62,268 bases of DNA from Psammoneis japonica (taxonomy: Eukaryota). The notes beneath the pieces were generated by a model. It made no database searches. It was given only the letters and a program-made list of their open reading frames with translations, and was not told the DNA's origin. The stretch is taken from positions 1-62,268 of the forward strand of contig QPGO01000312.1 of the NCBI GenBank assembly GCA_008632985.1. The letters are read 5' to 3'. The position numbers and the translations under genes are program-made. Positions 3,378 to 58,931 of this stretch are shown one piece after another. Every line of letters begins with the position of its first letter. The stretch's first letter is position 1.

Positions 3378-3393
3378 GATTTCTACTCTGAGC

Positions 3394-4017
3394 AGTTGAG
3401 GAATGAAGCCATGTGAATGAGCATTAAGTTCTACGTACGCGCATGAAGAGTAGAAAAAAACAGGGTTTACATGTCAGAAAGTGTGCTTTGGTGTTAAGTG
3501 GGAGGAAACCACGAAAGTGGCACCAGCTCCTACGGCATCACTGGTTTTGACCATGCTGATTTCTACTCTGAGTGGTTGTGAGCCTGTACCTTCCTTGCGG
3601 CCTTGGGTTCGAATTGCCCCCAATGCCTTCTGTCTGCTTCATGGCCAAAACTGGCGTGTGAGAACCACGTGCATGCCACGTTCACACAGGCAGACAGACA
3701 ACCCCAATGACCCGAACTCGATGGCAGCATTGCCCCCAATGTCTCCCCGGCCAACAGCCAACCCGGGTGTCCCCTCATTCACGTGATAATGAGGTCCGCC
3801 GCATGATTGAAATAATCACCATCGAGAGGGAGAGTTGAGGAATGAAGCTGCATGGATGATCGTTAAGTTCTATGTGTGTGCATGAAGAGTGAAAAAAAAC
3901 AGTGTTTGTGTGTCAGAAAGTGTGCTTTGGTGTTAAGTGGGAGGAAACCGCGAAAGCGGCACCAGCTCCCATGGCACCACTGGTTTTGACCATGCAGTGC
4001 TGATTTCTACTCTGAGT
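3394..4017 (+). mobile_element. TRIM-like miniature LTR element: ~180-bp direct repeats 3394-3573 and 3833-4017, ~260-bp internal part
   Basis: Direct repeats. GGTTGTGAGCC (3574-3584) is one change from the half-tRNA-Met PBS GGTTATGAGCC. PPT GAGAGGGAG at 3824-3832. Third repeat copy at 42224-42403. Confidence 0.6.
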
Positions 4018-5503
4018 GTTGCTGGAGTGCACAAGGTTGCAGCATGCATCAGCTGACAGGAGATGAGTGATGGAGGGGAAGGATCATTTGTGGAAGAGGG
4101 TGCTTTGTGTTTGCTTGTTGGCGAGGTGGGTGGTGAGATGGTGAAGGTCTGTGGCAAAAGAGGCAGCTTTGTTGTGTGGGAAGTTCATGGCAAAGGCGAA
4201 TGAGCCAATGGGTTGGCCGAGGAAGCAGATGCCGGTGGTGATTTTGGGCTTGATGTGTGAGTCATTGTTAGGATTAAGGAAGGTGATGGCTTCGGAGAGA
4301 GCATCGACATCGGCGGGTGGGATGCAGTTGATGGGAGAGGTGCCGGTGGTGGATGTGAGAATTTGTGTTTTGGAGGTGTTGAGGTTGATGCCAAATTGGG
4401 GGCGACAGGCAGAAGGTTGCTTGAGAAACCAAGAGAGCTGGGAAAAGGAGGGGGGGATGTGGGCATCATCAATCTATGATGAAGCAGCAGAATTGGATCG
4501 GGGAGGAAGCCGGTGATGCAACTCATCATTGATGGGGGTGAATGCATGGGTGAGGACCAGGCAGGAGAAGGCATGGCTGAGGGGACAGCCTTGGGCAAAT
4601 CCTTCAGGCTGAGAAAAGGAAGACCATTGCAGTTGATGGTCTTGACACCAGCAAGTGTTGGGGTCTTGGTAAAGTGGGTCAAAAAAGGCACGATGGCACG
4701 GTGTGTTTGTCAGAGGTTGTAAGGGTGTCACGGCAAGCATCCCGAGAGCATTCATTGAAGCAATTGGAAAGGTCAAGAAGGAGGAGAGCTTTTGTGGGTG
4801 TGGAGTCTAGCTGAAAGAAACATTTGATGTTGGTGCAAGTGGTGTCCACAAGGTGGTTGAGGCCGCCTTTGACACTGCCGACTCTGAATTGGCCAGAGAG
4901 AAGGAGGTTGGTGGCAAAGGTGGCAGCAAGGAGATGCATGACAAGGGGGTGCAGGAAATTCTCCACAGGGCTGTGCCAACACCAATTGGTCAAAGTTTGA
5001 AAAGGTTGGATGAATCCTTGTGTGGGGCAAGGAAACCATTGCATGAAAAAGCAGGTTTGATGGATGTAGGAATGTCTGCTGTGAGGATGAGGTCGAGCAG
5101 GCATTTGAAAGTGAGCAGGTGGGGGTGTGAGGAGGATGTTGGTGCAGAGCTGTGGTGAAGAGCACAGGCCTTGAAAAGGTCAGTGGACTCATCGAAGGCT
5201 CTGCACGCTTTGCCTGGTTGACATTTGGACAATGCTTTTTGAAGGTTGCCGGTGGTGAAATGCAGGGGGGGAAGCAGATTGGTGGTGTCGGGTGGATGGT
5301 GCAGTGGACAAGCAGGTGTTTGCATGGCAGGCAGAGCTGTTTGACAAGCTCCATGCTTTTGGGAGTGAGAGATGCAACAGGAAGGGAGGAGGTGACCCGG
5401 GCGTAAGCGGTGTGAAGGTTGTTGACATTTGCAGCGATTTGAGCAGAATGGACATAGGATGAGTGGTCAAAGTCAGGAGGTTCATCAGACATGCATGGCA
5501 TGG
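4018..5503 (-). pseudogene. CRE-like (RLE-class) non-LTR retrotransposon RT fragment
   Basis: Frameshifted minus-strand peptides GQFRVGSVKGG, ALLLLDLSNCFNECSR, EGFAQGCPLS and downstream xIDD match non-LTR RT motifs. Confidence 0.8.
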
Positions 5504-6704
5504 TGAAAAGAAATTGAAGATGACTGGTTGGAAGAAAACAACAACTCCTTGCTGCTGTCTAAATGGCAGATGAGTCTCCATGCAGAGACTGTTACAGGAG
5601 CCAAAAGACTGGTGTTGTTGACATCGGTGCTGCTGTCATTGTTCTTGTGAGCCATGTGGCTCGAAAGCAAACTGCATCATGTGTGGCGCGTGGAACTAAG
5701 AGCACACATAATTGTGTGTGACAAACTAGAATCTTGTTCAAATCCTGTCCTTCCCCAGTTTGCTTGAGGGGTCAACAGCAATAGATTTGAGGTCAGATTG
5801 GTTGAAAGCCTTGGGATCAAAGTTCCAAAACATTAGAGGACAAAGGAGGTTCCATACCTGGGAGTGACCCCAGTGCTTGCTGAGGATGTCAGCTGGGTTG
5901 TGGGAACCTTCGATGAAATGAAACTCAAGGAAACCACAGGCAATTGCCTCCCGCACACGATGGAACAAGAGGGCGGCATGTTGCTTGTGTAACTTGGAGT
6001 GCGGGATGCTGGCACTGTCCACAACCAACTTGTTGTCCCCGAACATGTAACATGTTTCACGAATGGGGCTGCCAAGGTAATGTAAAGTGATGTGCAGATC
6101 AATGATCTGCTCAATGCATGTCCTTGCGGCAACAAACTCAGATCCATGCGTGGCAGGCTTGACTGTTGCTTGTTTTCTTGGAGAACCAATCAGCCGGAAA
6201 CTCATTGAGGAAATGAAGGATGCCGGTGACAGAGCATCCGGTGAGCATGCAATGGAACAAGTTTGCATCAACATAGTGTGTCGTGGTGACAAACTTGCCA
6301 AGTGGCTCAGGTGCATCTTGCAGGAGCAGCTCTTCTACCTCCCCATACACAGATTGGGCCCCCAGTCATTCACGAGCTTGGGAAGGTCCGAATAGTCGGG
6401 CTCCTCAGTGCGGACTCAGAGGGCACCATGGCGCATCTTGGAGAGGAAACCGCAGATACGTTTGGCATGGTCTAGGTGGCCTTGACGGGGTGCTGCATGG
6501 AAGCTGGACAGGGACATGACAGCCACAGTGATGTCAATGTGACCAAGGGATGCAGCCCATTGCAGAGAGCCAATCAAGGACTGGAATTGGTGGATGCCAT
6601 CCGGTGGGAGTGGTTTGGAGGTGTCAAGCTCAGGGTGGTCTCCCTTGTCAAGAGGTGAAAGCACATCAGTTTGAGGCTTGCTTCTCCCCAAAGAGACGTG
6701 CACA

Positions 6705-7742
6705 AAACAAAACCCAACATCTACATTTAAGGTGCCATTGCGCTTCCACCCAGCAACTCTGGCAACAAGCTAACCCACCCCCCTGGTGCACATATATGCG
6801 GCAGGGGCATGTAGCGATCAGCCTGGACCGGCATCACAGTCAGGTGATGCCGCACCAGTCAGGTGATGCCGCACCGAAACAACTAGCGATTGTGTGAGTG
6901 CCCCTCACTGCTGTCCTCTTTGCCTCCTTAATGCTGGATTTGAAGATGGTTCTTGCCATTTCCAACCAATTTTGTAGTCTATGAGTTGAATGAGTTAGGT
7001 GTTCATCCACCAAGTCACATAATGCGGACCTGTCCTTTGCCAGGTAGTCATTCGATCTGGAATGTATGGCCTTGACTTCCGCCTCTGCATCTCTCCTTTG
7101 AGCCGATTTCCTCATTTCTGCATCATGACCATGCACTGGGTCGTTATGGTGATCCCACAGATCCCACCATTGAGACCAGATGAAACTTCCTATAGTGGCC
7201 AACCAATCCAATCTCTGGATATTCTCTTCAGCGTCGGGAGGAAGGTCTATGCCACCGAGATGCGCACAGTGCGCTTCGTTCCATTGAACGGCAAATCTGC
7301 CATTGAACAGCTGCCTCCATCCAATCTGGTCTTGAGAATAAAACACCACTATAACACTGTGGTGCAGGTCCTCCGGATACACAATCGTGTCGCGAAACCA
7401 AGCTTTGAGGGCTTCCAAGAGAAGATCACGAATGGGGGGGGGGTGCATGAATGTCACCGCATTTCTTGCGTAGGCCTTGTAGGAAGGTACGGCGCCATGT
7501 CTCGTTGTGGGGACATTTTAAGATATGATCCCTGTCCTCCATTGAATGGGAGCAATGCATGCAAGCGTCTGGACGATTGGGGTTGCACCGATGTGCTATC
7601 TTGTTTGTGGGTAACAAGTCTTGGACCAACTTGATGGTGCTGACTTTATGCCTGATGTTCCTTGACATGAGTTTAGAATGAGACGACCAATCTATGGACT
7701 GAAGCACTTCATCTGTTCAAGAGCATTTCTCCTTCATATGTT
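6705..7742 (-). mobile_element. 5'-truncated Ambal-like LINE (ORF2 C-terminus plus 3' UTR)
   Basis: C-terminal zinc knuckle CMHC..EDRDHILKC, IGWRQLFNGR, WDLWDHHNDPVHG. GTTTT-type tail. 15-bp TSD AAAGAGACGTGCACA at 6690-6704 and 7743-7757. Confidence 0.85.
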
Positions 7743-10140: not shown

Positions 10141-10465
10141 AAACACACAGTCCAATTTTAAGTGCTGCTGCGCTTCCACCCTGCAACTCCGGCAACAAGC
10201 TAACCCACACTCCCAGCACACTGTGTGCAACAGGAGCATGTATCAATTAGCCAAGATCAGCATCACCCTTGGGTGATGCCATGCCAAAGTAGCTTGCAAT
10301 GGTGCACGTGCCTCTAACTGCTGGACGTCAGGCTTCTCAGACACTCGTCTTGAACATCGGCCTTACCACAGCTAGCCAGTTTTGTATTCTGCGGGTAGAG
10401 TGAGTGAGATGCTCAACAACTGCTGAGTTAAACAACTGAGCTCGGTTGCAGGCTAAGTGCTCATC
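10141..10465 (-). mobile_element. Second 5'-truncated Ambal-like LINE 3' end
   Basis: Homologous to 6705-7000 (AVRGTCTIASYFGMASPKGDADLG*, same 3' UTR and T-rich tail). 5' boundary approximate. Confidence 0.78.
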
Positions 10466-10844
10466 AGCTTGTGTACGCCCTTTTCAGGTGCATGCTGGCG
10501 GGCATGTGGGTGTACTGTGTTGTGCAATCAAAAGTGCGGTAAACAGTGTCATTCGGGAGGAAGCCAAAATGAGGGCGGAGAGACTCATAGTCGGGATCCT
10601 TGGGGGGTTGATCTCGCGCTCATGGCATTTGTAAAAGAAATCAGACATCGGGAGGAGATGGTCATCTAGGACAGAGTCTGCAAGCATGGCGTTGTTGACA
10701 ACATGTCGGTGACAACAGTTGCCAAACTCATCAAAGAGGTTGGCAGTCAGAGATTGTCCTGCAGGTCAGACAGGGAGTCATGTGCCACTTCTCATCGTTG
10801 GTGAACTGGTGGTCAAGGACAGATGGGTCCCATGCATCATCGCC

Positions 10845-12329: not shown

Positions 12330-13515
12330 ATTCTACGGCAGCTACCCACCAAGAAACCCTACGTGTGTTTCTACGTACGCTCTCGCACTGATGTCACCCT
12401 TCTCAGACGGCATTTTGCTGGGTCTGCCACGACCATACTGGCCCTTTCTATCAATGGTGTGCCTTTATTTCAGCAAGTTAAGCAACGTTACTAAGTGGAA
12501 AACGAATGGCGTCGACTCCTTATGGGTCGTATGCATGTTGATTTTTTTCGTTATTTTCTGCAGATCGAAGAAATTTTCTACACGGATTTCGTTACAAATT
12601 CTACGCGCTTTGACAAATCCCAATGACGACTGTTTTGTCAAGTCTCCGAGCTTCTCATACCCATACCCTTCCGTTTCCAATGACTCTCTTTATTCCCATC
12701 AGCCAATCAAGTCCTTCACTACTTGTGGTGAAAGTACTACTTCTGTTGTGATCCTGACGAGCGTGAGTATGAGCCTCCCTTCGGCAACAAATGACTACCA
12801 TCAATTTGCTATGCGTATCGGCACTTCTACGCAAGACCCAGTACGGTTTCTACGTGTGAAAAATATCTTTCCTGACGACCGACTCGAATCATCAAGTGCT
12901 CCTATTTCTTATCTCCCAGTCTTGGACGAACCCTCCCTTACTTACTGGCAAACCAAGCTCTCTGTTACATACAGTGATCTTTCTATTGTTTCATTTCTTC
13001 GAGGTTTGAATGAGGTTTCCCACTTGATAAGTGACTACCATCAATTTGCTACGCGTGTTGGCATTTCTACGCAAGATCCGGTACGGTTTATACGTGAGAA
13101 AAATATTTTTCCCGACGACCGACTCGTCGAATCATCAAGTACTCCTATTTCTTATCTCCCAGTCCTGGACAAACTCTCCCTCACTTACTGGCAAATCAAG
13201 CTCTCTGTTGCATGCAGTGATCTGTCTATTGTTTCATTTCTTTGAGGTTTGAATGAGGTTTCCCACTTGATGAGCGACAGCCAGTGGTTCGGCACTCTTC
13301 CTTTGACTTCCTTTTGGCTTCCTTTATGGCTCTTATGTAAATTTTTCCCAAATGCAACTGTCCTCTGTGGTGGTGGTGTAACCAACGTGTGTGTCACCAG
13401 CAATGCCATAGTAAACTCCAAGTGTTATTGTGCTCTTCGCACCAACTATTTCTGTCAGGCGTCTCCTCAGGGAGACGCCGATTCAGGCTAATCGCATGTA
13501 CTTCTGCAGCATCTC
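12330..13515 (+). mobile_element. Non-autonomous retroelement with an Ambal-like LINE 3' tail, copy 1 (3' end cut off by Copia sequence)
   Basis: Paralog of 42422-43515. 13455-13512 aligns with the LINE ORF2 end/3' UTR, including the stem-loop. Confidence 0.7.
12391..13491 (+). pseudogene. Unknown-function ORF (366 codons with one internal CGA->TGA stop at 13243-13245), N-terminal hydrophobic segment
   Basis: ORFs 12391-13245 and 13249-13491 are in frame. The stop reads CGA in the first copy of the internal 240-nt repeat. Homologous to 42532-43452. Confidence 0.6.
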
Positions 13516-13884
13516 CAAGCGGGGTGTACTTGAAGTGTGGGTTATTTTCACATAGATTCAATCCAATGTTCAGCAGTGAAGAAGGCACGTATATACTTCC
13601 ACCGCCAATGGTGCGCGTCGTCGAAATTTTCCGATGACGATGATGAAAGCTCAATGGATGAAAATGAGCAAGACTGTTAATCTAACAGAAATTGATGATG
13701 ACTGGGTGGAAGAAAACAATGACTCCTTACTGCTGTCTAAACAGCAGATGAGTCTCCGTGCAGAGACTGTTACAGGAGCCGAAAGACTGGTGTCGTTGAC
13801 ATCGGTGCTCGCGCGTCACGCGTGGAACTAAGAGCACACATAAAATTATGTGTGATAAACTAAAATCTTGATCAAATCCTATCA
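13516..13884 (-). mobile_element. Truncated Copia family B 5' end (internally deleted LTR 13683-13884, PBS, part of UTR)
   Basis: Matches family B LTR termini and the GATTAACAGTC PBS; similar to 36100-36498. Confidence 0.8.
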
Positions 13885-15660: not shown

Positions 15661-15981
15661 GGGAGCGGCGAAGTGTGTTGGGATCTTGGTGTTAGACCAT
15701 GCGCAGCGCATGCTCCAAAATTCCACCGTCTTTCCGTGTCTCCTTGCTACGGTAGTCTACCTACAGTACCGGTACATACAGTACAGTTGCTGTGAAGCGT
15801 GGCGTGGTGGCAGCGAGGCAGCAGACAGGGAAGAATTATTCACATCATAGATCATGGTCATGGGGCTTACTTCTAGACTACGGTAGGGCCCTCTCTAGCT
15901 AGAAGTTACTGATTATTATTGCTGTGGCAAAAGTAATGCTGAGCTGTATTGCAGGTCATTTACGGGAAGAAGTCACTGGCA

Positions 15982-30253: not shown

Positions 30254-31091
30254 AATGGGCAGCTGGAACCTTTGTCACACCCAAGAAGGATGGATGAGTG
30301 TGATGGGCATCCAACTTTCGAGAACTTAAAAAGGTCCTCAAATATTGCAAGGTTTGTCCCCTGCCTGTTGTTCAAGACGTGATTCATCAATGCTCAGGGC
30401 ACAAAATTTTTGACCAAGTTGGATCTCACTGTGTTTTACTGACATGTCGATCTCAATGAGAAGTGCAAGGACACATGCACTGTCATCACTCCCTTTGGAA
30501 AGATCGGCAAATGCTCTCAATGTTGAGGCCTGTGTTGATGATGTCGCTCAATTCGATGATTTATTTGATGCTCACATGCGCCATCTTGATGAGCTGTTGC
30601 TCAGGCTGGAAGAAAATGATGTCAAGGTCAACCCACTCAAGTGCAAGTGGTGCATCCAAGAGACTGATTTTCTAGGCCATTGGCTCATGCCGACACATTC
30701 CTTCATTGGTGCAGCAACCTGTTCATGTGGCCATGCCATTCTCATGTGCTTGCTCCATCTACGAAGCTCACAGGCAAGAGAAAATTGGAGTGGATGTCAG
30801 AGTGTCAGAAAGCTTTTGAAGACATGAAAACTCTTATATATGTTGAACAATGCCTTGTGGGCTTTTCCTGGTCATAACAAACCCTTCCACATTTGTGCCA
30901 ATTCCTCCAATTATCAGATGGGCACAGTGATTGTGCAAGAAGGAAAGCCGGTTACATGCTGGTCCCGGAAAAACAGTGCAGCACAGCAGAATTATTCTAC
31001 CAGGTGGTGACTCTTCTTGGAGGATTTCACACCTACGTTTGAGTGTGTTGACGGCAAGGACAATGTGTTGGATGATTGTTTTTCTCAATTC
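30254..31091 (+). pseudogene. Gypsy RT/RNase H remnant (continuation of 21917)
   Basis: TPKKDG, ACVDDVA, KVNPLKCKW..ETDFLGHW, CQKAFE; several deletions. Confidence 0.85.
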
Positions 31092-39228: not shown

Positions 39229-42108
39229 TTGTCCCATAGTTTGAGGTACACTGACACATGAATATATGCACAATGTCACAATGCTGTTCCGAGAATTCAT
39301 GAAGATACTTTCAAGAAAGAACTTCAGCATCTTGTTCAGATAAAGGTGTTGAGACCTTGTGGTCCTGCTCAATGGGCGTCTCCTTTGTTGATAATCATTC
39401 CTAAACAGGATCAATGAGTGCGATGGGTGTCCGATTTTTGCATGCTCAACAAGGAGCTAAAAGGTTGATCTATCCTTTGCCAAGGATTCAAGAGATTTTC
39501 AAGAAGAGAAAGGGACACATGCACTTCACCAAGTTGGACTTGTCTATGTTCTACTGTGCGTTGGAGTTGGATGAAGAAACTACGGAGCTGTGTGCTGTTG
39601 TTGATCCTCAAGGCAAATTCCAACATTGTCGGCTCGTGATGGGATTAAAACCGGCTCCAGATGTTGCTCAATTGGTTATTGAGGAAGTGCTAAATGAGTT
39701 GGACATAGATTGCTTTGTTGATGATGTTGGTCTCTTTTCAACCTCTTGGTCTGATCATTTGGCTGTGATCAATGCAGTGTTGCAATGGTGAGATGAGGAC
39801 TGTTCAAAAGTGAATCTGATCAAGTGCAAATGGGCCATTCAGGAAACCAATTTCCTCAGATGTTGGATGACTTCAGAAGGTGCCAAGCCTTAGAAGAAGA
39901 AGGGCAGAGGCAGTGCTTAAGCTTTCTCCTCCTAAGAACAACATGGAACTCAGATCTTTTATTGGAGCCGTCACTTGCTGTCATGACATATGGCCTCTAT
40001 GATTGCATGTTTTGGTGCCATTAATGGAATTGACAGCGAAGCAACATTTTGAATGGATGCCAGCTTGTCAAAAAGCTTTTGAAGAGATCAAGGCCATTGT
40101 GGTGGGTGACACATTACTTGCTTGCCCTGATCATAACCTTCCTTTTCAGATTTATGCAGATGCAAGTGATCATCAGCTTGGTGTGGTTATCACGCAGAAT
40201 GGCAAGCTGATCGCATGTTGGTCCCAAAAACTCAATGTGGCTCAGAAGAACTGTTCCTCTGTGGAAAAGAAAATGCTTGCTGCAGTTCTTTGCTTCAAAG
40301 AGTTCCAATCTATGTCATTGGGAGCTGACATAACAGTCCACATGGATCATAAGAATTTGACTTTCAAAATGCTTAATGCACAACAACTGCTTTGTTGTCA
40401 CCTTTTCCTTGGAGAATTTGGACCTAAATTTGAATGTGTTGAAGGCAAGGAGAACATTCTGGCTGATTTCTTTTCACGATTTCCTCGTGTGGAGAAAACC
40501 ATGGAAGGGAAGAGTTGTTCTAAAGTGGAGTGTAAAGGCACCATTGTTGCTTTCTCTCTTCCTTCAATTGCCAATGCTCCAGAAGACAAGTCGTTGGAAG
40601 AAGGTTTGGGTCCTGAGTTGAGCACTTTATTCTGCACCATTCAAGATCTAGAATTGGTGGATTGCTTTCTGAATTGTCCAAGTCTGGAAGAGATGCATCC
40701 TCTGAATTTTCCTGACATGCAAAGGCTTCAGTTTGAAGATCAAGAGCTGAATTAAGAGCGGCAAAGGAATCCGCTTATAGTTTTCCGACTCGATGCATTG
40801 GTGGAATTCCGTTGATTTGTTGGAGGCCTGAAATCAATGCACAAGAAAATGATTGGAAAATTGCTTTGCCAACCACTTTGTCAGCACCTGTTGTGAGGTG
40901 GTGACATCAAGTCTCAGGGCATTGTGGCACACAGAAGCTCTGCTGCACAATTTGCATGCATTGTCATCATCCGTCGCTGTGACAATTGGTCGAAAATAAT
41001 CATTGTGATACGTGCCAAAGGAGCAAGCTATGGGGAGCTGGATGTGGTCATTTGCCACCAAGAGAATCTCTGTTAGTTCCTTGGGATGAAGTTGCTGTTG
41101 ATTTAATTGGTCCTTGGAAAATGCAAGTACAAGGACAGGAAGTTGAGTTTAATGTGCACTAACTGCAATTGACACTGTTTCTAACCTTGTTGAATTGGTT
41201 TGCATTGTCAAAAAGAATTCAGATCACGTGCAGATGAAGTTTGCTAATTGCTGGCTAGCAAGATGTCCAAGACCAAACCGTTTCATTCATGACAAAGGCA
41301 GTGAATTTATTGGAGAACCATTTCAGATTCTGTTGGCGACAGTGGGAATCAAGGACGTGGAGACCACCACCGGAAATCTTCAAGCCAATGCCATTTGTGA
41401 GAGAATGCATCAAACTGCTGGCAACATTGTAAGAACAATGATTGGAGGACATCCTCCTCACAATATGATGAAAGCTCAGCAGATTGTTGACAATGCATTG
41501 GTCACTGCCATGCACAGTCTGTGATGCACTACATCAAGAGTTTTGGGAATTTCACCCGGAGCTCTAATCTACCAAAGAGACATGTTTCATGATTTACCTC
41601 TCATTGGAGATTTCATTGCCATTCAGAATCATTGACAAGTGTTGATTGATGATAACTTACATCAACAAAATCTCAAAAGACGCTTTTTCAACTATTGTGT
41701 CGGGCAACAAAATTTGATCAAGACAGATGATCCTGCTAAGTTGGAAGCCAGATCTTTTGGCCCTTTTCCTGTCACACAGATTCATGTGAATGGGAATGTC
41801 ACAATGCAAAGAGCACCTCATGTATTTGAATAGATTAACATTTCACGCATTTTGCCACATTGACTTTGGCATGATTAAGTGGATTGCGATTCAAAGCATT
41901 TGCATGAATCGCGGAAGGGAAGAGTGAAGTAAACTTCTGCATCATAATTACGTCAGCAGCTGCAAGATTTGGGAGATTCGAATGACCGGGATTGTTGACA
42001 CCTCGAAGAAATTCTGCGACAGAAACCCGAACACTGTGGCTGTAGTCAATCGTAGCTTTTCCCATAAATTTTAGAAAGTGCTCGTGGACAACTTATCAAG
42101 ACCGTTCA
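39229..42108 (+). mobile_element. Degenerate Gypsy element: RT, RNase H, integrase, PPT and 3' LTR 41925-42108
   Basis: FTKLDLSMFY, CFVDDVG, YADASDHQLG, ENILADFFSR, IHDKGSEF, QANAICERMH, GPFPV. PPT GGAAGGGAAGAG. LTR TGAA...TTCA. Confidence 0.9.
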
Positions 42109-42421
42109 CCGATGGCAGCATTGCCCCCAATGTCTCCCCGGACAATGGCCAACCCAGGTGTCCCCTCATTTACGTGATAATGAGGCCCACCGTGTGATTA
42201 AAATAATCTACGTCGAGAGGGAGAGTTGAGGAATGAAGCCATGTGAATGAGCATTAAGTTCTACGTACATGCATGAAGAGCAGAAAAAAACAGGGTTTGT
42301 GTGTCAGAAAGTGTGCTTTGGTGTTAAGTGGGAGGAAACCGCGAAAGTGGTACCAGCTCCTACGGCACCACTGGTTTTGACCATGCTGATTTCTACTCTG
42401 AGTGTTGCTGGAGTGTACAAG

Positions 42422-43515
42422 AAAAACCAGATCTATTTTTTTAGGTGCTGTCACTCCTTTGCCAGCTGGGCCGGCACCGGCTGACCCACACTCCCAGTAC
42501 ACAGTCAAGTGCGGCAGGAGCTTGCACGGGATCAGCCGGAATGGGCATCACCAGAAGATGACACCCCACCAAGACAACTCAAAAGGAATGATTCACACGA
42601 GGAATTTATTGCATGTTTGTTGATGACAGCCACAGAAGGCACACCACAACTGCAACGGACAATTGCATTCAGATAGGTTTTTAAAATAGTCCACAAAGGG
42701 AGCCTTGAAGGTGAGACGAGCAGGTCGTCGGAGAAAACATTCTTGACACGTAGAAACAATTCTGAGTCTTGCGTAGAAAAGCCGCTGAGAGCAGCAAACC
42801 GAAGACCATCAAATGGCACCACAGGACAACTTGCATTCTTGCTGAAAAGGGCCGCAAAAGAAGCAGCACATTCACCACAAAGAGTGAAGTACTTGATTGC
42901 ACGGCAGAGAAAAGAAGAGAGGTTGAAGACCGATTGGCAGGGATAAAAGTAGTCCAGAGAAGTGACACGTAGACAGTCAGAGGTAACACGTAGAAACAAT
43001 ACCAGATCTTGCGTAGAAAGACCGATGGGAGTAGCAAATCGACGACAATCAAATGACTCCGAAGGACAACCAATGTTCTTGCTGCAAAGGGCCGCAACAG
43101 AAGTGGCACTTGCACCATAAAGAGTGAAGGACTTGATTGCATGGTAAGGAAAAGAAGTAGGGTTGAGAACCGATTCGCAAGGATAAAAGTAGGCCGGGGA
43201 AGTGACATGTAGATCGTCAGCAGCATCTGCAGATCCGCGTAGAATTTGTACCAGAACCTGTGTAGAAAATTTTCTGAAACAACTGAAAATTACGAGAAAT
43301 AACAACCAGCTTACGAACCAAAAGGCCGGGACACTCGTCATTTTCCACTGATGAACTTTGCTCATCATGCTGTAATAAGGATGTACCATTGGTAAACATG
43401 GGCAGAATGGGCTTGTTGGAGCCAAATCAACACCATCTGAGAAGGGCGACATCAGTGCGAGAACTCGCGTAGAAACACATGTAGGAGGTTGCTAGTGGGA
43501 GCTTACGTAAAAGAG
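42422..43515 (-). mobile_element. Non-autonomous retroelement with an Ambal-like LINE 3' tail, copy 2 (complete, 1094 bp)
   Basis: ~16-bp TSD TGCTGGAGTG(TA/CC)CAAG at 42406-42421 and 43516-43531; empty site at 4020-4035. Last ~145 nt align with the LINE 3' end at 57373-57514. Confidence 0.85.
42532..43452 (-). CDS. Unknown-function 306-aa ORF with a hydrophobic segment, carried by the non-autonomous retroelement
   Basis: Open ATG-to-stop. Paralog of 12391-13491 (MSPFSDG..., W..ML/LLF.VIF..KFST, ..STQD...FLRVKN.F.DD, GDAxSG*). Confidence 0.55.
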   Translation of the reverse strand: MSPFSDGVDLAPTSPFCPCLPMVHPYYSMMSKVHQWKMTSVPAFWFVSWLLFLVIFSCFRKFSTQVLVQILRGSADAADDLHVTSPAYFYPCESVLNPTSFPYHAIKSFTLYGASATSVAALCSKNIGCPSESFDCRRFATPIGLSTQDLVLFLRVTSDCLRVTSLDYFYPCQSVFNLSSFLCRAIKYFTLCGECAASFAALFSKNASCPVVPFDGLRFAALSGFSTQDSELFLRVKNVFSDDLLVSPSRLPLWTILKTYLNAIVRCSCGVPSVAVINKHAINSSCESFLLSCLGGVSSSGDAHSG

Positions 43516-46470
43516 TGCTGGAGTGCCCAAGGTTGCAGCATGCATCAGCTGACTGGAGAGGAGTGATGGAGGGGAAAGATCCTTTGTGGAAGAGGGTGCT
43601 TTGTGTTTGCTTGTTGGTGAGGCGGGTGGTGAGACGGTGAAGGTCTGTGGCAAAAGCTGCGGCTTTGTTGTGTAGGAAGTTCATGGTAAAGGTGAATGAG
43701 CCAATGGGTTGGCCAAGGAAGCAGATGCTGAAGGTGATTTTGGGCTTGATGTGTGAGTCGTTGTTGGGAGGAAGGTGAGGGCTTCCAAGAGAGCCTCAGC
43801 ATTGGCGGGTGGGATGCGGTTGATGGGAGAGGTGCCGGTGGTGGATGTGAGAATTTGTGTCTTGGAGGTGTTGAGCTTGATGCAAAATTGGGGGCCACAG
43901 GCAGAAGGTCGCTTGAGAAACCAAGGGAGCTGGGAAAAGGGGAGGAAAATGTGGGCATCATCAATCTATGATGAAATAGCAGATTTGGATCGGGGAGGAA
44001 GCTGGTGAAGTAACTCATCATTAATGGGGGTGAATGTGCGGGCAAGGACGAGGCAGGAGAAGGCGGGGCTGAGGGGACAGCCTTGGGCAAATCCTTCAGG
44101 TTGAGAAAAGGAAGACCATTGCAGTTGATGGTCTTGACACCAGCAAGTGTTGGGGTCTTGGTAAAGTGGGTCAAAAAAAGGCACGATGGCACGGTGTGTT
44201 CATCAGAGGTTGTAAGGGTGTCACGGCAAGCATCCCGAGAGCATTCATTGAAGCAATTGGAAAGGTCAAGAAGGAGGAGAGCTTTTGTGGGTGTGGAGTC
44301 TGGCTGAAAGAAACGTTTGATGTTGGTGCAAGTGGTGTCCACAAGGTGGTTGAGGCCGCCTTTGACACTGCCGACTCTGAATTGGCCAGAGAGAAGGAGG
44401 TTGGTGGCAAAGGTGGCAGCAAGGAGATGCATGACAAGGGGGTGCAGGAAATTCTCCACAGGGCTGTGCCAACACCAATTGGTCAAAGTTTGAAAAGGTT
44501 GGATGAATCCTTGTGTGGGGCAAGGAAACCATTGCATGAAAAAGCAGGTTTGATGGATGTAGGAATGTCTGCTGTGAGGATGAGGTCGAGCAGGCATTTG
44601 AAAGTGAGCAGGTGGGGGTGTGAGGAGGATGTTGGTGCAGAGCTGTGGTGAAGAGCACAGGCCTTGAAAAGGTCAGTGGACTCATCGAAGGCTCTGCACG
44701 CTTTGCCTGGTTGACATTTGGACAATGCTTTTTGAAGGTTGCCGGTGGTGAAATGCAGGGGGGGGAAGCAGATTGGTGGTGTCGGGTGGATGGTGCAGTG
44801 GACAAGCAGGTGTTTGCATGGCAGGCAGAGCTGTTTGACAAGCTCCATGCATTTGGGAGTGAGAGATGCAACAGGAAGGGAGGAGGTGACCCGGGCGTAA
44901 GCGGTGTGAAGGTTGTTGACATTTGCAGCGATTTGAGCGGAATGGACATAGGATGAGTGGTCAAAGTCAGGAGGTTCATCAGACATGCATGGCACGGTGA
45001 AAAGAAATTGAAGATGACTGGTTGGAAGAAAACAACAACTCCTTGCTGCTGTCTAAATGGCAGATGAGTCTCCATGCAGAGACTGTTACAGGAGCCAAAA
45101 GACTGGTGTTGTTGACATCGGTGCTGCTGTCATTGTTCTTGTGAGCCATGTGGCTCGAAAGCAAACTGCATCATGTGTGGCGCATGGAACTAAGAGCACA
45201 CATAATTGAGTGTGACAAACTAAAATCTTGTTCAAATCCTGTCCTTCCCCAGTTTGCTTGAGGGGTCAACAGCAATAGATTTGAGGTCAGATTGGTTGAA
45301 AGCCTCGGGATCAAAGTTCCAAAACATTAGAGGACAAAGGAGGTTCCATGATTCCAAGACTGGACATTAAGTTGTGTCCCATAATCATGTTGTATCTTGA
45401 AGAAGTCATGGAGTCATCGACGCATGCTGTCTTCTCAATCAGTTTGTGTTTATCAAATTCAGGTGGTGAGAATTGACAGCAGGGTGTGCCAGAGGTGTGG
45501 GTTAGCTGGTGCCGGTGTTGCTGGGCAAAGGTGCAACAGCACTTTAAATTATGTTTGGTTTTATTTATCAGTCATAAAGAGACCACCCTTGGTTTCCCAA
45601 GTCTTGGTGATAGATTTTTTACTTCTCAGCTTCTGCTTAAATTTGCACAAAATTATGGTTGAAGATGTTCTGCCATCAGGAAGAACGCACAGTGGCTTAT
45701 TTTTCTCCTTTCTCAAAGAAGCACTCATATGAGCAATGACTGCTGGACTAGCATGGATTACTTTAGCCCTTTTTAGGCTTCCTAATGTCCAGCAATGCAC
45801 AAGACTCCTCAAGCAGAGCCAGTCATTCCTCAGAATCGCCATGCATCATTCTCTTGAATTGGCAGTTTTCCAAACTGAGGGCATCAGAGTCACATTCCTT
45901 GCTCTCATGCTTTGAATTCTTCGTGTTTGAACTTGACTTGATGAAATTGTTGACTGCCTGTTTGATCATGGTGTTCAATTCCTCTTTTGGAGTGGCACTT
46001 TTAGTGCCGCAAAGAGCCACGTGCATTTGCCATTAGTGTGCTGCCATTTCGAGTTGCACTCAGCATTCTCTTGGTGCTCTTTTGCCATTCGTTTGATGAC
46101 CCAGCAGCACAAATCTGTGTTGTGTGAGTGTTCTTCTCTTAACAATTGCACCACTCATCAAACTTAAACCGCTTGTTGCCGGACAGGCAACCTGACAGGA
46201 TTTGAACAGGATTTAGGTGCACGCGGAATGTCGCGCACTATTTAGTCTACCGCGCACAGTTTTGTGTGCTCTTTAGTTCCGTGCGTACGCGCGCGATGTA
46301 GTTTGCTTTCGAGCCACACGGCTCACAAGAATAATAACAGTAGCCCAATTATACCGACTTACACGTCTTTCGGCTCCTGTAATGGTCTCTGAGCGGAGAC
46401 TCATCTGCTATTTAGACAGCAGTAAGGAGTTATTGTTTGAATTCTTGCCATTTGCCTTCAATTTCTTTCA

Positions 46471-50400: not shown

Positions 50401-53400
50401 GGCGCATGCCCCTCGAGACTCTTACTGGCTCCACCCCGGACATCAGCCCATTGCTTCGCTTTCACTGGTGGGAACCCGTGTACTTCCACCTCGATGACTC
50501 CGATTGGCCATCCGAATCCTGTGAGTTGCGTGGACGCTTTGTTGGCATTGCTGAACACGTCGGCCACCAGATGACCTTTAAGATTCTTTCTGACGACACT
50601 CAGAAGATCCTCTGCCGGTCCAATGTATGACCCGCTACCACCGATCCTTCCGTTCGAAACCTGCGTCTTGATCCTCCTGATGGGGAGCCACCTGAACCCA
50701 TCATCAAATCTTGCCATGACGACAACCCCATCGATTCACCTGATGGGGAGATCAGGACACCCAAGATGCCAGTTTTTGATCCGCAAGACATCATCGGACG
50801 CACCTTCCTCATGCAGCCACAAGAGGACGGACAACGCCACAGAGCTCGCATCGTCAAGGCCGTTGAAGATCACGACTGGAAAGTGAACGGCAACCCCCAG
50901 CTCACTAAGTTCGTCTGCTCTGTCAACAACGATGAATACGAGGAAGTCCTGGCCTACAACGACATCATGAATCACATTGAGCAAGAAGACGAAGACACCA
51001 CTGTTTGGAAATTTCGACGTATTGTGTCACACGAAGGACCTCTGAAGCCTCATGACCCAACCTGGAAAGGCTCAAGCTACAACATCATGCTTGAATGGGA
51101 AAGTGGGGAGATCACGTCCGAGCCTCTTGCCATCATCGCCAAGGACGACCCTGTCACCTGCACCATCTATGCACGAGAGAACGGACATCTCGACACTGAT
51201 GGCTGGAAGCGGTTCCGCACCATTGCGAGGCGCCAGAAGAAGCCATTCGGCATGGCCAACCAAGCCAAGCTTCGCTCCTTCCGCACTGCACCTCGCTACA
51301 AGTACGGATGCGAAGTTCCCCGGAACTACAAACACGCCATGTCCCTAGACGAACGCAAAGGCAACCGCAAATGGGGAGACGCAACCAATCTCGAGATGGA
51401 CCAACTCAATGAATACGAAGTCTTTCATGACTGCGGGCCCTCCGAGTCTTCCACTCCTCCTGCAGGACACAAGAAGATCCGAGTGCACCTAGTGTACGAC
51501 GTGAAACACGACGGCCGCCACAAGGCACGACTCGTAGCCGATGGACACCTCACGGACGTACCCATCGATAGTGACTAATCTGGAGTAGTCTCCCTTCGTG
51601 GCCTTCGGCTGATGATTTTCTTGGCCGAACTCAACGAGTTGGAGACATGGGCCACCAACATTGGTAATGCCTACCTTGAAGCCACCACCAAGGAGAAGCT
51701 GTACATTGTAGCTGGACCCGAATTCGGCAAACTCGAAGGCCACATTCTTGTCATCTACAAGGCCCTGTATGGACTGCGCAGCTCCGGCCTCCGCTGGCAC
51801 GAGCGCTTCGCCGACTGCCTGCGAGCTGAAGGTTTCTTCCCCTGCCGCGCCGAACCCGACATTTGGATGCGCAGGAGCGGCGACCACTACGAACATGTTG
51901 CCGTTTATGTGGATGACCTCGCCATTGCCATGAAGGATCCTCAATCTTTCGTCAATACTCTCACGGAAAAGTACAAGTTCAAGCTCAAGGGCACGGGACC
52001 GATTGAGTTCCATCTAGGCTGCGACTTCTTCAGGGATCCTGACAGCACCTTCTGTCTATCTCCGCGCAAGTACATCGAACACATGGTTGACAGCTACACA
52101 CGATTGTTTGGGGAGTAACCTACCACCAACGTCCTGTCCCCTCTGGAAAAGGGTGACCACCGACGCGTTCCAGCCCTAGGTGGGACTCCGTGTGACATTT
52201 GGCCCGTAGAATTCTACGTGCGAGCTCCGTAGTACGAGAATTTAATTAATGGATATATTTATCTTCAACATCAAATAAACGGCCAAGTTTGTGGTACAAT
52301 TATGCCTCTTACCACTCGACGTTTTTGCAAATGCACCTGCCCTACGCGATTTTTAAGACATTATAGAATCGCGCTGTAACAAAAAATGTCAAAAGTTTTT
52401 GGACGGATCGCTCAATAAGTGTACCGTAAAATGACACAAAATATCAAAAAATCACGTAGAATTCTACGTGCGCGACATACGACGAGATTCAAAAAACTAT
52501 CGATGTCACAGTTCAGTAGTGCGAGGTCCCACCTAGACCTGGAACGCGTCCACCCCGAACTGGACACTTCCGAACTGCTGGGGCCCGATGGCATTCAACA
52601 GTTCCAGTCTCTTGTTGGTTCCCTCCAATGGGCAGTGTCTCTTGGTCGAATTGACATTACCACGGCCGTCATGTCACTCTCTGGCTTCTGAGCTGCGCCC
52701 CGTCAAGGCCACTTGGATCGTGCCAAACGCATCTGTGGGCACCTCTCCAAGATGCGACACAGCGCTCTCCGCGTTTACACGGAAGAGCCCGACTATTCAG
52801 ATCTCCCTGCACCGGCCTATGAATGGATGTATTCCGTGTACGGCGAAGCAGAGGAGATGATCCCGAAGGACGCTCCACCGCCCCTTGGCAAGTTTGTCAC
52901 TACCACCCACTACGTCGATGCAAACTTGTATCATTGCATGCTCACCGGACGCTCTGTCATGGGAATGCTCCACTTCCTCAACAAATTCCCGGCTGATTGG
53001 TTCTCTAAGAAGCAAGCCACCGTGGAGACTGCAACCTACGGGTCTGAATTTGTTGCCGCAAGGACTTGTGTCGAGCAGATTATCGACCTGCGCATTACCC
53101 TGCGTTACCTTGGCATCCCGATCCGTGACATTAGTTACATGTTCGGTGACAACAAGTCGGTTGTGGACAGTGCCACCATCCTGCACTCCAAGTTACACAA
53201 GCGACACACCGCTCTGTTGTTCCATCGTGTGCATGAGGCGATTGCCTCTGGTCACCTTGAGTTCCACTTCATCGAAGGCTCCCGCAACCCTGCTGACATT
53301 CTCAGCAAGCGCATTGGGTTACTCCCAAATCTGGGACCTTCTCCGTCCCCTCATGTTTTGGAACTTCATTCCATCCAAAGTCGAATCTGTTTCTGTGACT

Positions 53401-55131: not shown

Positions 55132-57345
55132 CCAATTCAAGTTTAACCTCTTGTCCAAGTTCTGACACCCTCCTCAGTTGCACCATGGTCCTCACCTGAC
55201 AGCAACAAACTGATGGCTTTGAGCACATCTCAGGCACTGTTCTGAACCAAGCTGCAGACAGTCCTTTGTGCTCTTCCCTCAACATCAATGGAACCAACTC
55301 CCACCAGGATCTCTTCATGTTTGCTCCAGCCCAACTCAATGCCTTAGTTTGCAATGATGGCACCAACCAACTCCCGTTGCCATGAGGATGCAAAGCACTC
55401 ATGGTGGTGTTGATAAGTTTTTACACTGTAACCTAGTGCGCTTGCATGCCTGCCAGTGTGCAAGTCACCCAACCTGGCTCTCAACAACTGTCACCACAAC
55501 AAACCTGTTACCACTGACACGGTGCACTCCGACACTGCCTCTGTCAACTCTGGATGCATCAGCGCACAGCTCTTTGTTGGTGTGGAATCCCTCGTCACCC
55601 ATGTGTGTGGCACCAAGATGGACAAGGAATTTGTCAACACCCTCAAAGACAACATTCACAACCATGGTGCTCCATCCAAGCTCATCAGCAATCGCACCCA
55701 AGTTGAGATCAGCAACAAGGTCCTTGGCATCCTCCATGCCCTCTTCATCTACAGTTGGCAAAGCGAGCCCCACCAACAGCACCAGAATTTTGCTGAACAC
55801 CACTGCCAAACTATGAAGAACATGGCCAACACCATCATGGATTGCTTCGGATCTCCGGCCCACACCTGGATCCTCGCTCTTATGTGCATGTGCTTTGTGC
55901 TCAACCACACAGCCTCTGCCAAGCTCCACTGGTGCACCCCCACCAAAGTGCTGTCTGGATCCACTCCTGCTGACATTAGCTCCCTCCTCTGTTTTCAATG
56001 GTGGGAACCTGTGCACTGCCACCTGGATGATTCGGACTGGCCATCTAAATCCTGTGAGTTGCATGGTCACTTTGTTGGCATTGCCGAACACGTGGGTCAT
56101 CACATGATGTTCAAGATTCTTTCTGACAACACTCAGAAGATTCTTTACCAGTGTGACATCTGCTCTGCCGCCGGTGACCCGTCGATGCACAATTTGCATC
56201 TTGATCCTCCTGATGGGGAGTTTGCTACACCCATCATCATCAAATCCCCTCATGACTCAGAGGATTTGCCAGATTTGTCAGATGGGGAGGAGATCAGGAT
56301 GCCCAAGATGCCAGTCTTTGACCCCAAGCACATTGTTGGATGTGCCTTTCTCATGAAGCCACAAGAGGATGGACAGCGCTGCAGGGCCCGTGTCATGAGG
56401 CTGTTGAGGACCATGACTGGGAGATCGGTGACAACCCAGAACTCATCAAGTTCATTTGTTCAGTTGACAATGATGAATGTAAGGAAATCCTTGCCTGCAA
56501 CAACATCATCCATCACACAGAGCAAGACAATGACAACACAACCATCTGGAAATTCTGATGTGTTGTGTCACACGAAGGACCGTTGAGGCCCCACGACCCC
56601 TCTTGGAAAGGCTCAAGCTACAACATCATGCTTGAATGGGAAAGCAGGAAGATCATGTCTGAACCCCTTGCCATCATTGCCAAGGATGCTCCCATCCCCT
56701 GTGCCACATGCGAACGTAAGCATGGCCTCCTCATAACTGAAGGATGGAAGTGCTTTTGCAAAATAGCTTTGCACCAGAAGAAGCTGTTCCACATGGCCAA
56801 CCAAGCCAAGCTGTGCTCATTTTGCACTGCCCCATGCTACAAGTGCGGGTGTGAAGTACCGCATGACTACAAGCACCCTTGGCCCTCAAAGAGCACAATG
56901 GCAACTGCAAGTGGGGAGATGCAATGAACCTCGAGATGACTCAACTCAGCGAGTGTGAGGTCTTAAATGATTGTGGACACTACAAGGACTCTAGTGCCCC
57001 AGCAGGACACAAGAAGATTTGCATGCACCTGGTCTGTGATGTCAAACATGACGGCAGGCACAAAGCATGACTTGTTGCTGATGGACAACTCACTGACATG
57101 CCCATCAACAGCATCTGTTCTGGTGTAGTGTCCCTCCATGGTCTCCAATTGATGATCTTCCTAGCTGAACTCAACAAGCTGAAGACATGTGGGTGACCTA
57201 CATTGGCAATGCCCACCCAGAAGCCATGACCCCAAGGAGAAACTGTACATCATTGCAGGTCCCAAATTTGGAGATTTGGAAGGACACATCCTTGTCATCC
57301 ACAAGGGTCTGTATGGCCTCCGCAGCTCCGGTCTCAGGTGGCACA

Positions 57346-57515
57346 TCGTACTGTCACTAGTTACTTCGGTGCGGCATGAGGGTGATGCCGGTACAGGCTG
57401 ATCGCTATATGCCCCTGCCGCACACATGTGCACTGGGGTGTGGGTTAGCTTGTTGCCGGAGTTGCTGGGCAGAAGCGTAATAGCACCTTAAAAATAGATG
57501 TCATGTTTTGTTTCA
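57346..57515 (+). mobile_element. Third, ~170-bp 5'-truncated Ambal-like LINE 3' end
   Basis: Reverse complement of the 6705-6890 region. TSD GTCTCAGGTGGCACA at 57331-57345 and 57516-57530. Confidence 0.87.
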
Positions 57516-58931
57516 GTCTCAGGTGGCACATATGAGTGCTTTGCCGATTGTTTGCAAGCTGGAGGATTCTTCCCATGCTGCGCCTAACCTGACATCTGGT
57601 TATGCTGGAATGGTGACCATCATGGACACGTGGCAGTGTATGTGGATGACCTGGCCTTTGCGATGAAAGATCCCCAGGCCTTCGTCCACTGTCACAGAGA
57701 AGCACAAGTTCAAACTCAAGGGCACTGGACCTCTGGAATTTCACCTTGGTTGCACCTTCTCTCATGACTCCGATGACACGCTGTGCCTGGCTCCTTACAA
57801 GAAGTGCATTGAGCGCATGGTCAAGAATTGCTCACGCCTTTTTGGGGAGAAGCCTCACACCAACACTCAGATGCATTGAAATCACTACATCCATCGTGTC
57901 CCTCTCCAGCTTCCATGCTGCACCCCGTCAAGGCCATTTGGACTGCGCCAAACCTGTCTGCGGATTCTTGTCCAAGATGTGACATGGTGCCCTACGAGTG
58001 TGCACTGAGGAACCCGACTATTCAGATCTTCCCAAGCCTGTGCATGACTGGGCTCAAACCACACATGGTGATGTGAAGGAACTGATTCCTGAAGATGCAC
58101 CTGAGCCTCTTGGTAAGCTCATCACCACGACCCACCATGTTGATGCAAACTTGCTCCACTGCATGCTCACTGGATGCTCCGTCACAGGCATCCTTCACTT
58201 CCTTAACAAGTTTCCAGCTGATTGGTTCTCCAAGAAACAAGCTGCAGTCGAGACTGCAACTTGTGGATCTGAGTTTGTTGCCACTGAGACATGTGTAGAA
58301 CAGATTGTTGATCTGCACACCACATTGCATCACCTCAGAGTCCCGATCCGTGACACATGTTACATGTTTGGGGACTGCAAGTCAGTTGTGGACAGTGCCA
58401 CCATCCCGCACTCCAAGTTACACAAGCGAAACACTGCCCTCTTGCTCCATCATGTACATGAGGCAATTGCCTCCAGTTTCTTCAAGGTCCACTTTATCGA
58501 AGGTTCCTGCAACCCTGCTGACATCCTCAGCAAACACTGGGGTTACTCCCAGGCTTGGAACCTCCTCCATCCTCTCATGTTTTGGAATTTTGATCCTGAG
58601 GCCTTTGGTCAATCCGACTTCAAATCCATTGCTGTGGACTCCTCAAGCAAACTGGGGAGTGACAGGATTTGAACAAGTTTTTAGTTTATAGCACATAATT
58701 GTGTGTGCTTTCCATGCGTAACATGCGTGCGTGCGTGACATAGGGCCGTGGTAGTTTGCTTTTGAGCCACTCTCGGCTCACAAGAACAATGACAGCAGCA
58801 CCGATATCATGACACCAGTCTTTCGGCTCCTGTAATGGTGTCTGCACGGATGCTAATCTGCTGTTTAGACAGCAGTAAGGAGTTGTTGTTTTCTTCCACC
58901 CAGTCATCTTCATTTTCTGTCAGGTTGACGT

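Follow-up and report, generated by a model that had tools for sequence, protein, structure and literature searches.

Element A and its insertion site

We analyzed a 62,268-nt stretch of DNA from Psammoneis japonica (positions 1 to 62,268 of the forward strand of contig QPGO01000312.1, assembly GCA_008632985.1; hereafter, the window), with a focus on element A, a complete copy of a non-autonomous retroposon that lies on the minus strand (Table 1). Element A consists of a body that contains a long open reading frame (ORF) and of a 3' module that is shared with the long interspersed nuclear elements (LINEs) of the window, including the stop codon at which the ORF ends. Element A and a diverged paralog, copy P, are almost certainly representatives of two subfamilies of a many-copy, 1.1–1.2-kb, non-autonomous family of non-LTR (non-long terminal repeat) elements with LINE tails. 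For the reading as a whole, namely, that this is a LINE-mobilised retroposon whose ORF is selected for openness and not for its sequence, such that translation itself matters, we consider the case to be favorable, although by no means compelling.

Comparison of the filled site with a paralogous empty site delimits a 1,091-bp insertion. The flanks align with the paralogous segment at 88.0% identity on one side (3719–4035 with 42110–42421) and at 96.1% on the other side (4020–5855 with 43516–45349). The target-site duplication comprises 15 nt with two mismatches, or 19–22 nt when one gap of 3 nt is tolerated; the 4 nt at 43513–43516 are ambiguous, being either part of the duplication or extra bases at the junction. 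In the sense orientation, the element starts with TTTTACGTAAGCT and ends with ...AGCACCTAAAAAAATAGATCTGGTTTTT. The lengths of the duplications are alike for element A (15–19 bp) and for the two LINE copies with mapped duplications (14 and 16 bp). The initial annotation had described a 1094-bp insertion with a target-site duplication of ~16 bp and an empty site at 4020–4035; the insertion, the duplication and the empty site are all borne out, and only the end coordinate had been placed ~3 nt too far.

The empty site could, in principle, stem from a precise deletion within the paralogous segment or be an artefact of the assembly, and it is the case that a single empty site is on offer and that the flanks are themselves repeated. 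One contig of sequencing run X1 joins 42405 to 43516, and is indistinguishable from the paralogous site. However, the duplication is located exactly at both ends of element A, the 3' end of the element is a LINE 3' end, copy P begins at the same base in an unrelated context, and hundreds of contig pieces with a match to the body lack one to the flanks. The probability that no insertion occurred is accordingly negligible in our estimate, and the insertion of element A is confirmed.

A structured tail shared with LINEs

The last ~155 nt of element A align with the LINE tails at 6705–6857, 10156–10267 and 45484–45562, with 65–72% identity over 116–156 nt (E-values of 1e-8 to 1e-10 in a within-window search). 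Another tail copy, at 57368–57513, is linked to this group through its 84% identity to the tail at 6705–6856. Homology to the LINE 3' end, previously proposed on the basis of an alignment with 57373–57514, is thus upheld; the sequence taken there for the LINE end belongs to a 5'-truncated copy of 169 bp. In both A and P, the similarity to the LINE begins 40–47 nt upstream of the LINE ORF2 stop codon, whereas the alignment of A with P extends beyond 170 nt on this side of the stop. Therefore, the junction between body and tail is a single, old one that is common to A and P. Given that the two copies have diverged by 32% since this junction was formed, recurrent one-off deletions are excluded. 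The body/tail family is old and was presumably copied in trans by a LINE reverse transcriptase (RT).

The six tails fit a common structure of 36 pairs in five helices, in which 94.4% of the cells are paired, compared to 28–46% when the partners are slid, and which none of 500 shuffles reached; this structure was derived from only six sequences and scored on the same alignment. Seven of the pairs are altered on both sides, that is, compensatory. The arms of hairpin 1 are GGCATCACC/GGTGATGCC in the LINE and GGCGTCTCC/GGAGACGCC in P, with two compensatory changes between them. The encoded peptides end in ASPKGDADLG* (LINE copy at 10141), ASPQGDADSG* (P) and SSSGDAHSG* (element A), exactly as first described. 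An attribution of the conserved ...ASP.GDA..G* end to the RNA of hairpin 1 alone was considered; as the compensatory changes in P are synonymous as well, the constraints on the RNA and on the peptide are inseparable at this hairpin.

Copy P and the wider family

Copy P is 68.3% identical to element A over the first 527 nt and 65.9% identical in an ungapped comparison over 540 nt. The earlier placement of this paralog at 12330–13515, starting at about the same 5' point as element A, is correct for the 5' limit (12331) but not for the 3' limit (~13545), where P is cut inside its tail. The frame of P extends from an ATG at 12391 to the LINE-type stop codon at 13489–13491 and is interrupted by one in-frame TGA (13243–13245). 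Both copies contain in-frame tandem duplications of exactly 240 bp, that is, 80 codons, which are built from different units in A and in P.

In the window, the body of element A has no match other than P, and the two ORFs match only each other. X1, a DNA run, was the one public run found to contain the stretch, with no RNA run listed. Among its Logan contigs, by contrast with its two sister runs, X2 and X3, which yielded no contigs matched to 42300–43650, there are 801 pieces that match this region at at least 80% likeness and cover both body and tail. By identity, 99 of these pieces are in the class of at least 99%, 170 at 95–99%, 275 at 90–95% and 257 below 90%. The summed contig depth is 1,500–8,400 within element A vs 300–640 in the flanks, a value that is a sum over contigs and no copy number. 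Taken together, the contig pieces and the raised depth indicate that the family is many-copy. Joints within the contigs show that family members differ in how many internal repeats they contain ('goes back 229' being one such joint). The family variant sites comprise 209 transitions and 38 transversions, counted in both directions, and this transition bias would be consistent with the deamination of methylated cytosines in repeats that are silenced. Scans of JGI metagenome contigs with a tail pattern and with a 5'-module pattern returned 0 loci each.

Element A thus combines a LINE 3' end, a target-site duplication, a defined 5' end, the lack of an RT or endonuclease of its own and a multi-copy family, the set of features that defines a LINE-dependent, tail-sharing retroposon.

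The reading frame is kept open

The ORF of element A is, as initially annotated, 306 codons long when counted from its ATG, and it terminates at the LINE stop in the LINE frame; between stop codons, it measures 319 codons. After codon 7, the ORF frame contains no stop codons, whereas the two remaining sense frames have 11 and 8; in P, there is one stop in the ORF frame and there are 19 and 13 in the others. In a simulation of neutral drift at 16% per lineage, 306 codons stayed open in 0.7–3.3% of 3000 trials. We consider it quite likely that the ORF of this retroposon is selected for openness.

An ordinary non-coding retroposon with a LINE tail could also acquire a long ORF as a by-product of an A-poor composition combined with the duplication of an open unit. 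Several observations accord with such an origin: A accounts for 19% and T for 34% of the sense strand, another frame stays free of stop codons for 202 codons across the repeats, amino-acid constraint is lacking (see below), and the composition by codon position is nearly flat, unlike that of the kinase gene in the window. However, none of 2000 dinucleotide-preserving shuffles reached the ORF length in either copy (maxima of 283 and 243 codons), and the shortage of stop codons is frame-specific and affects the same frame in A and P, namely, the frame terminated by the LINE stop codon. We therefore regard this explanation as very improbable.

The encoded sequence drifts

Over 172 codons, the differences between A and P are distributed over the three codon positions as 53/59/59, with an omega of 0.69, compared to 1.0 and 0.65 in the shifted frames. 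In the treatment matched to the controls, the values were 50/52/55 and 0.63. The controls were four pairs of copia ORFs from the window with 68–80% nucleotide identity, for which the distributions were 26/8/57, 23/14/45, 46/32/70 and 83/61/195; omega was 0.10, 0.24 and 0.15 for three of these pairs, and the fourth was saturated at synonymous sites. Thus, the excess of third-position and synonymous differences that marks purifying selection on a protein was not found between A and P. Among the best-supported family variants, 32 fall within the ORF (drawn from the 40 best of 247 variant sites), at codon positions 11/13/8; 7 of these are synonymous, 25 are nonsynonymous and none creates a stop codon.

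Searches for relatives of the encoded protein were negative throughout. Neither the A nor the P ORF matched a Pfam family at E ≤ 0.01, in agreement with the initial annotation that the element carries no RT or endonuclease. For the 319-aa ORF, there were 0 matches among 2,455 scored candidates of 175–559 residues and 0 relatives among 1.84 billion representative proteins, and an A+P profile had no match in PDB at E ≤ 10. Pfam and PDB searches with the A and P ORFs revealed none of the domains known from ORF1 or Gag-type proteins (RRM, CTD, zinc knuckle, esterase). An AlphaFold2 model of the ORF, made from a 3-row alignment that is too shallow, had a mean pLDDT of 30 and a pTM of 0.17. In view of the even distribution over codon positions, the omega of ~0.63 compared to 0.10–0.24 for copia and the missing protein relatives, the initial suggestion that the element is protein-coding is not supported in the usual sense of the term.

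The ORF could nevertheless encode a working, fast-evolving accessory protein, comparable to an ORF1-only LINE partner such as HAL1 or HeT-A, in which case an RNA-binding or targeting protein would be provided, or required, by the family itself. Compatible with this possibility, the frame is open in two subfamilies with a conserved start codon; a hydrophobic segment is present at residues ~41–59 in both copies, with a helix predicted at 43–59; the amino-acid identity between A and P is 37–40% over ~255 and 57 residues; and 8 of the 32 variant sites yield Cys where A has Tyr or Ser (counted by hand), which hints at a Cys-rich consensus. The lack of third-position bias, the high omega relative to copia and the failure to find relatives in Pfam, the large protein set or PDB all speak against it. 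So does the conservation between A and P, which resides in nucleotide blocks, third positions included. Moreover, ORF1 proteins are known as basic nucleic-acid chaperones, whereas the product of this ORF would be near neutral (pI 7.8) and hydrophobic. An accessory protein thus appears doubtful to us, if still worth considering. That translation itself, not the protein, is the selected feature has, in our assessment, a chance only slightly short of even.

Several points weigh against selection for openness without selection for sequence, or against its attribution to a LINE-tailed family, in addition to the limit on contig depth given above. Only two copies were read base by base, one of which, P, has an in-frame stop codon and a cut tail. 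The tandem duplications inflate both the length of the ORF and the counts of stop codons in the other frames. An omega of ~0.63 also fits a real protein that is fast-evolving or disordered, and nucleotide blocks that restrain synonymous change would push omega upward. The BLAST alignment of A and P contains 5 small gaps, or 3.1 per 100 mismatches, and this density is similar in the other repeat pairs of the window, coding or not; hence, the scarcity of indels, which we tried as an argument for coding, is no independent argument and was dropped. Finally, with only 65–72% identity between the tail of A and the LINE tails of the window, the true partner subfamily may lie elsewhere.

The 5' module and transcription

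The conserved 5' module of A and P starts with the terminus TTTTACG/TTCTACG, contains a TTCTACG motif at nt 39 and includes the start codon, which is located ~63 nt from the 5' end in the context CTCGCACTGATGTC (MSPFSDG), common to A and P. There are eight identical runs of at least 11 nt between A and P, a number reached by none of 5000 shuffles. The TTCTACG motif occurs at sense positions 39, 269, 495, 518 and 735 in both copies, and additionally at nt 1 of P, with a spacing of ~230–240 nt. Altogether, A and P hold 12 of the 27 TTCTACG sites of the window, for which ~4 per strand would be expected in total. In mouse L1, the promoter consists of tandem monomers, and the spacing of the motif in A and P together with their independent 240-bp duplications may be considered reminiscent of this arrangement.

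TTCTACG is also present in a host intergenic stretch (14205–15140) and in other repeats. In palindromic form, CGTAGAATTCTACG, it occurs at 15131, 52205 and 52455. The sites at 15131 and 52205 are embedded in a nearly identical context of ~50 nt (15120–15170 and 52195–52245), and the palindrome appears again at 52455–52468; these sites may represent a shared regulatory site. Given this distribution beyond A and P, TTCTACG is probably the site of a host factor that several elements use, and the array is a candidate promoter element shared with other repeats and the host intergenic region.

ARAGORN detected 0 tRNA genes in the whole window, and Rfam gave 0 matches at E ≤ 1 on 42300–43650; the original observation that no tRNA-like A/B-box head is evident therefore stands. 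Runs of at least four T in the sense strand number 15 in A and 8 in P. With these T runs and without a tRNA gene or Rfam match, transcription by RNA polymerase III (Pol III) is unlikely, and we infer RNA polymerase II (Pol II). For the same reasons, namely, the lack of a tRNA, 7SL or 5S head and the T runs in the sense strand, we rejected a classical short interspersed nuclear element (SINE) with a Pol III head.

LINE copies and other features of the window

Table 1. Positions of element A, copy P, the LINE copies and the other features in the window
Feature	Position	Strand	Basis or remark
Element A, complete non-autonomous retroposon copy	42422..43512	-	absent from paralogous site 4013-4035
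Target-site duplication beside 3' end of element A, gctggagtgtacaag	42407..42421	.	single occurrence in empty site
Target-site duplication beside 5' end of element A, gctggagtgcccaag	43517..43531	.	filled/empty comparison
Paralogous empty site	4013..4035	.	alignment of filled/empty segments
Conserved 5' module, first ~90 nt	43423..43512	-	ungapped A/P alignment
ORF, 306 codons, conserved ATG (MSPFSDG...) to LINE-shared stop 42532-42534	42532..43452	-	coding span 42535-43452
Tandem units of A, two x 240 bp (80 codons), 80% identical	42746..43220	-	TTCTACG motif pair in each
LINE-derived 3' module: last ~13-15 LINE ORF2 codons, stop, ~110-nt 3' untranslated region, T-rich end GGTTTTT	42422..42578	-	tail homology, structure
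Tail hairpin 1, within last ORF codons	42543..42566	-	alignment columns 16-24 pair with 31-39
Long composite stem-loop of tail (helices 2-4), beginning at stop codon	42480..42536	-	columns converted by hand
Distal tail hairpin (helix 5)	42446..42467	-	columns converted by hand
Paralog P, copy of second subfamily	12331..13545	+	cut within tail by another repeat at ~13550
Tandem duplication of P, 240 bp	12789-13035 and 13029-13278	+	P's own; repeats differ by 3-nt indel
5'-truncated LINE copy, 1,039 bp, C-terminal ORF2 with Cys-His zinc motif + tail	6704..7742	-	14-bp duplication
5'-truncated LINE copy, ~400 bp, ...ASPKGDADLG* + tail	10141..10542	-	duplication not defined; 5' limit uncertain
5'-truncated LINE copy, 169 bp, inside copia pol gene	57347..57515	+	16-bp duplication
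Tail fragment, ~83 bp, closest to tail of A outside the element	45484..45566	+	tail alignment
Copia-type RT (RVT_2)	404-2263, 7712-8359, 51579-52115		Pfam
Gypsy-type pol (RVT_1/RNase H/integrase)	39405-41521		Pfam
Protein kinase, uninterrupted 989-codon ORF	15943-18909		Pfam E 1.7e-49
Weak RVT_1 match	30414-30824		Pfam E 1.9e-4, below cut-off; no match to P0001

The LINE copies of the window are 5'-truncated to various extents and have GTTTTGTTTT-like ends that lack poly(A), and this combination of 5' truncation with T-rich ends without poly(A) is the signature of target-primed reverse transcription by a LINE. The longest copy (6704–7742) is flanked by the duplication gtgcacgtctcttt (7743–7756 and 6690–6703), with an empty site at ~57835–57850; the tail of A matches it at only ~65%. 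Its coding part corresponds to the ~330 C-terminal residues of ORF2 and is frameshifted once, at a C run near 7434–7442; just before the ORF2 stop, the copy contains a 19-nt tandem duplication of ggtgcggcatcacctgact (present twice; 6838–6875, minus strand) across hairpin 1. The copy within the copia pol gene is flanked by the duplication gtctcaggtggcacat (57331–57346 and 57516–57531). The tail fragment at 45484–45566 is 72–74% identical to the tail of A, compared to 65–67% for the other LINE tails, and has AGC-YGGTGCCGG and GGCAAAGG in common with A; it could be a truncated member of the family or a trace of the real partner LINE subfamily.

The LINE fragment at 10141–10542 lies between direct copia repeats of 272 bp (9869–10140 and 10543–10821; 82.8% identical). 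A target-site duplication would be much shorter and less diverged, and we rejected this explanation; the repeats may have arisen through a local duplication or the join of two copia copies.

The LINE that carries this tail is real but divergent. The 225-aa ORF of the 6704–7742 copy matches a 1,555-aa JGI protein, P0001 (E-value of 1e-17), and, in a tblastn search of the window, P0001 matched only this copy (E-value of 6e-32) and the copy at 10141. P0001 is 32% identical to the LINE of the window and is cut at its N-terminus. By eye, it contains RT-like motifs and an RNase H-like stretch; Pfam yielded only zf-RVT, below the cut-off. P0001 had no match in PDB at E ≤ 1 and no relative among viral contigs. 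The element tail had originally been called Ambal-like. Ambal appears as a Repbase LINE clade in sections of PMC5753468 and PMC4455052, and a passage of PMC12803021 reports LINE/Ambal as relatively abundant in one diatom genome. Membership in the Ambal clade is defined by RT phylogeny, and the LINE of the window is represented by the C-terminal ~330 residues of ORF2, outside of the RT part.

In general, the window is rich in transposons, as judged from Pfam searches of 113 of the 116 ORFs of at least 120 codons; the other three overlap the kinase gene in different frames. Among these 113 ORFs, Pfam identified no LINE RT or endonuclease. The kinase ORF, the one clear host gene in the window, is located ~800 bp downstream of the TTCTACG-rich intergenic stretch. 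A direct repeat of ~400 bp, 95% identical, is present at 20886–21286 and 21515–21917, with its copies ~630 bp apart.

Origin of the body and a possible mechanism

The body could derive from the partner LINE itself, as its 5' untranslated region plus the beginning of its first ORF, fused in frame to the last ~14 codons of ORF2 by one old internal deletion, as in SIDE, RIME/NARTc and HAL1. Deletion derivatives are documented for R2, ingi/L1Tc and L1 in portions of PMC3414825, PMC1874656 and PMC5753468. Such a deletion would account for an ORF that starts ~63 nt from the 5' end and is fused in frame to the terminal codons of the LINE. It would also fit the first ~90 nt, which are among the better-kept stretches (39 and 42 of 60 positions identical), as an internal LINE promoter would be, and the long runs of identity that surround both the TTCTACG site and the ATG. 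Conversely, the body resembles nothing else in the window, a weak objection given that all four LINE copies are 5'-truncated, and it matches no part of P0001, which is itself only 32% identical to the LINE and cut at the N-terminus. We entertain this origin tentatively, as something that may well not be the case; it is compatible with either view of the ORF and would change the origin of the family but not its mechanism.

As for the mechanism, we envisage that Pol II would transcribe the element from its own 5' module and the spaced TTCTACG array, and that the RT/endonuclease of a LINE would bind the shared 3' stem-loops in trans. The RNA would be copied into the nicked target by target-primed reverse transcription, leaving duplications of 14–16 bp (perhaps up to ~20 bp) and no poly(A). 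Selection would purge stop codons and frameshifts and keep duplications in frame, with the amino-acid sequence almost unconstrained. The benefit of the open frame might be that a ribosome that reaches the natural LINE stop, ~110 nt from the 3' end, protects the RNA, for example, from nonsense-mediated decay; alternatively, a ribosome at the LINE stop, next to the RT-binding structure, might bring the RNA into the condition of a LINE mRNA.

In the strictest version of the latter possibility, which we consider unlikely, the element must be translated, whatever the peptide, up to the LINE stop between hairpin 1 and the long RT-binding stem. If this were true, the capture of RNA by the LINE RT would be coupled to a ribosome that terminates at an exact spot, and the parasite would mimic this situation by means of a 'dummy' ORF combined with the last ~13–15 LINE codons in frame. 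A non-autonomous element would thereby take advantage, by a novel route, of the preference of a LINE for its own mRNA, and nature would provide an example of a frame that is selected to be open with no selection for a protein. Should the pattern hold genome-wide, the family would allow testing whether translation, mRNA surveillance or the position of the ribosome governs which RNAs are copied by a LINE with a structured tail, and how the preference of a LINE for its own mRNA arises. In any case, it would add a transposable element family that we did not find described, in a poorly annotated genome.

Comparison with known non-autonomous elements

SINEs that share a 'stringent' LINE 3' tail, such as eel UnaSINE1 with UnaL2, resemble the family described here in the borrowed LINE 3' stem-loop that serves as a handle for the RT, the target-site duplications and the defined 5' end. 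Unlike these SINEs, A and P have no tRNA, 5S or 7SL head, are 1.1 kb long, and contain an ORF as well as many T runs that would stop Pol III; moreover, what they have borrowed from the LINE already starts within the coding region, with the frame maintained.

To our knowledge, the R2 SIDEs, RIME and NARTc are non-coding, whereas the A/P family keeps a frame of ~300–370 codons open. The similarities are that these elements, too, are short, are mobilised in trans and have kept the 3' end of the partner. As presented in parts of PMC3414825 and PMC1874656, R2 SIDEs and, in trypanosomes, RIME/ingi and NARTc/L1Tc retain the RT-binding 3' end of the partner plus its 5' end or promoter.

HAL1 (half-L1) of mammals is likewise an RT-less LINE derivative that keeps an ORF, depends on the LINE ORF2 protein and forms families of its own. 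According to a section of PMC5753468, it codes for ORF1p alone and arose independently more than once. However, the ORF of HAL1 is recognisably L1 ORF1, whereas the ORF of A and P matches nothing and drifts without amino-acid constraint; furthermore, the 3' end of A and P is a structured, T-rich LINE tail without poly(A).

HeT-A of the Drosophila telomeres is an RT-less non-LTR element that relies on the RT of another element. It shares with A and P one fast-evolving ORF with in-frame changes in length. HeT-A differs in having a recognisable Gag with zinc knuckles and in targeting telomeres; the ORF of A and P has no such motifs, and the insertions in the window are dispersed inside other transposons.

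Thus, the non-autonomous partners of LINEs are usually either non-coding, like SINEs and deletion derivatives, or equipped with a recognisable LINE gene, like HAL1 and HeT-A. In the family of A and P, the frame is open across a divergence of 32% and through in-frame 240-bp duplications, with codons that drift like non-coding DNA, so that "being translated" would be separated from "making a protein".

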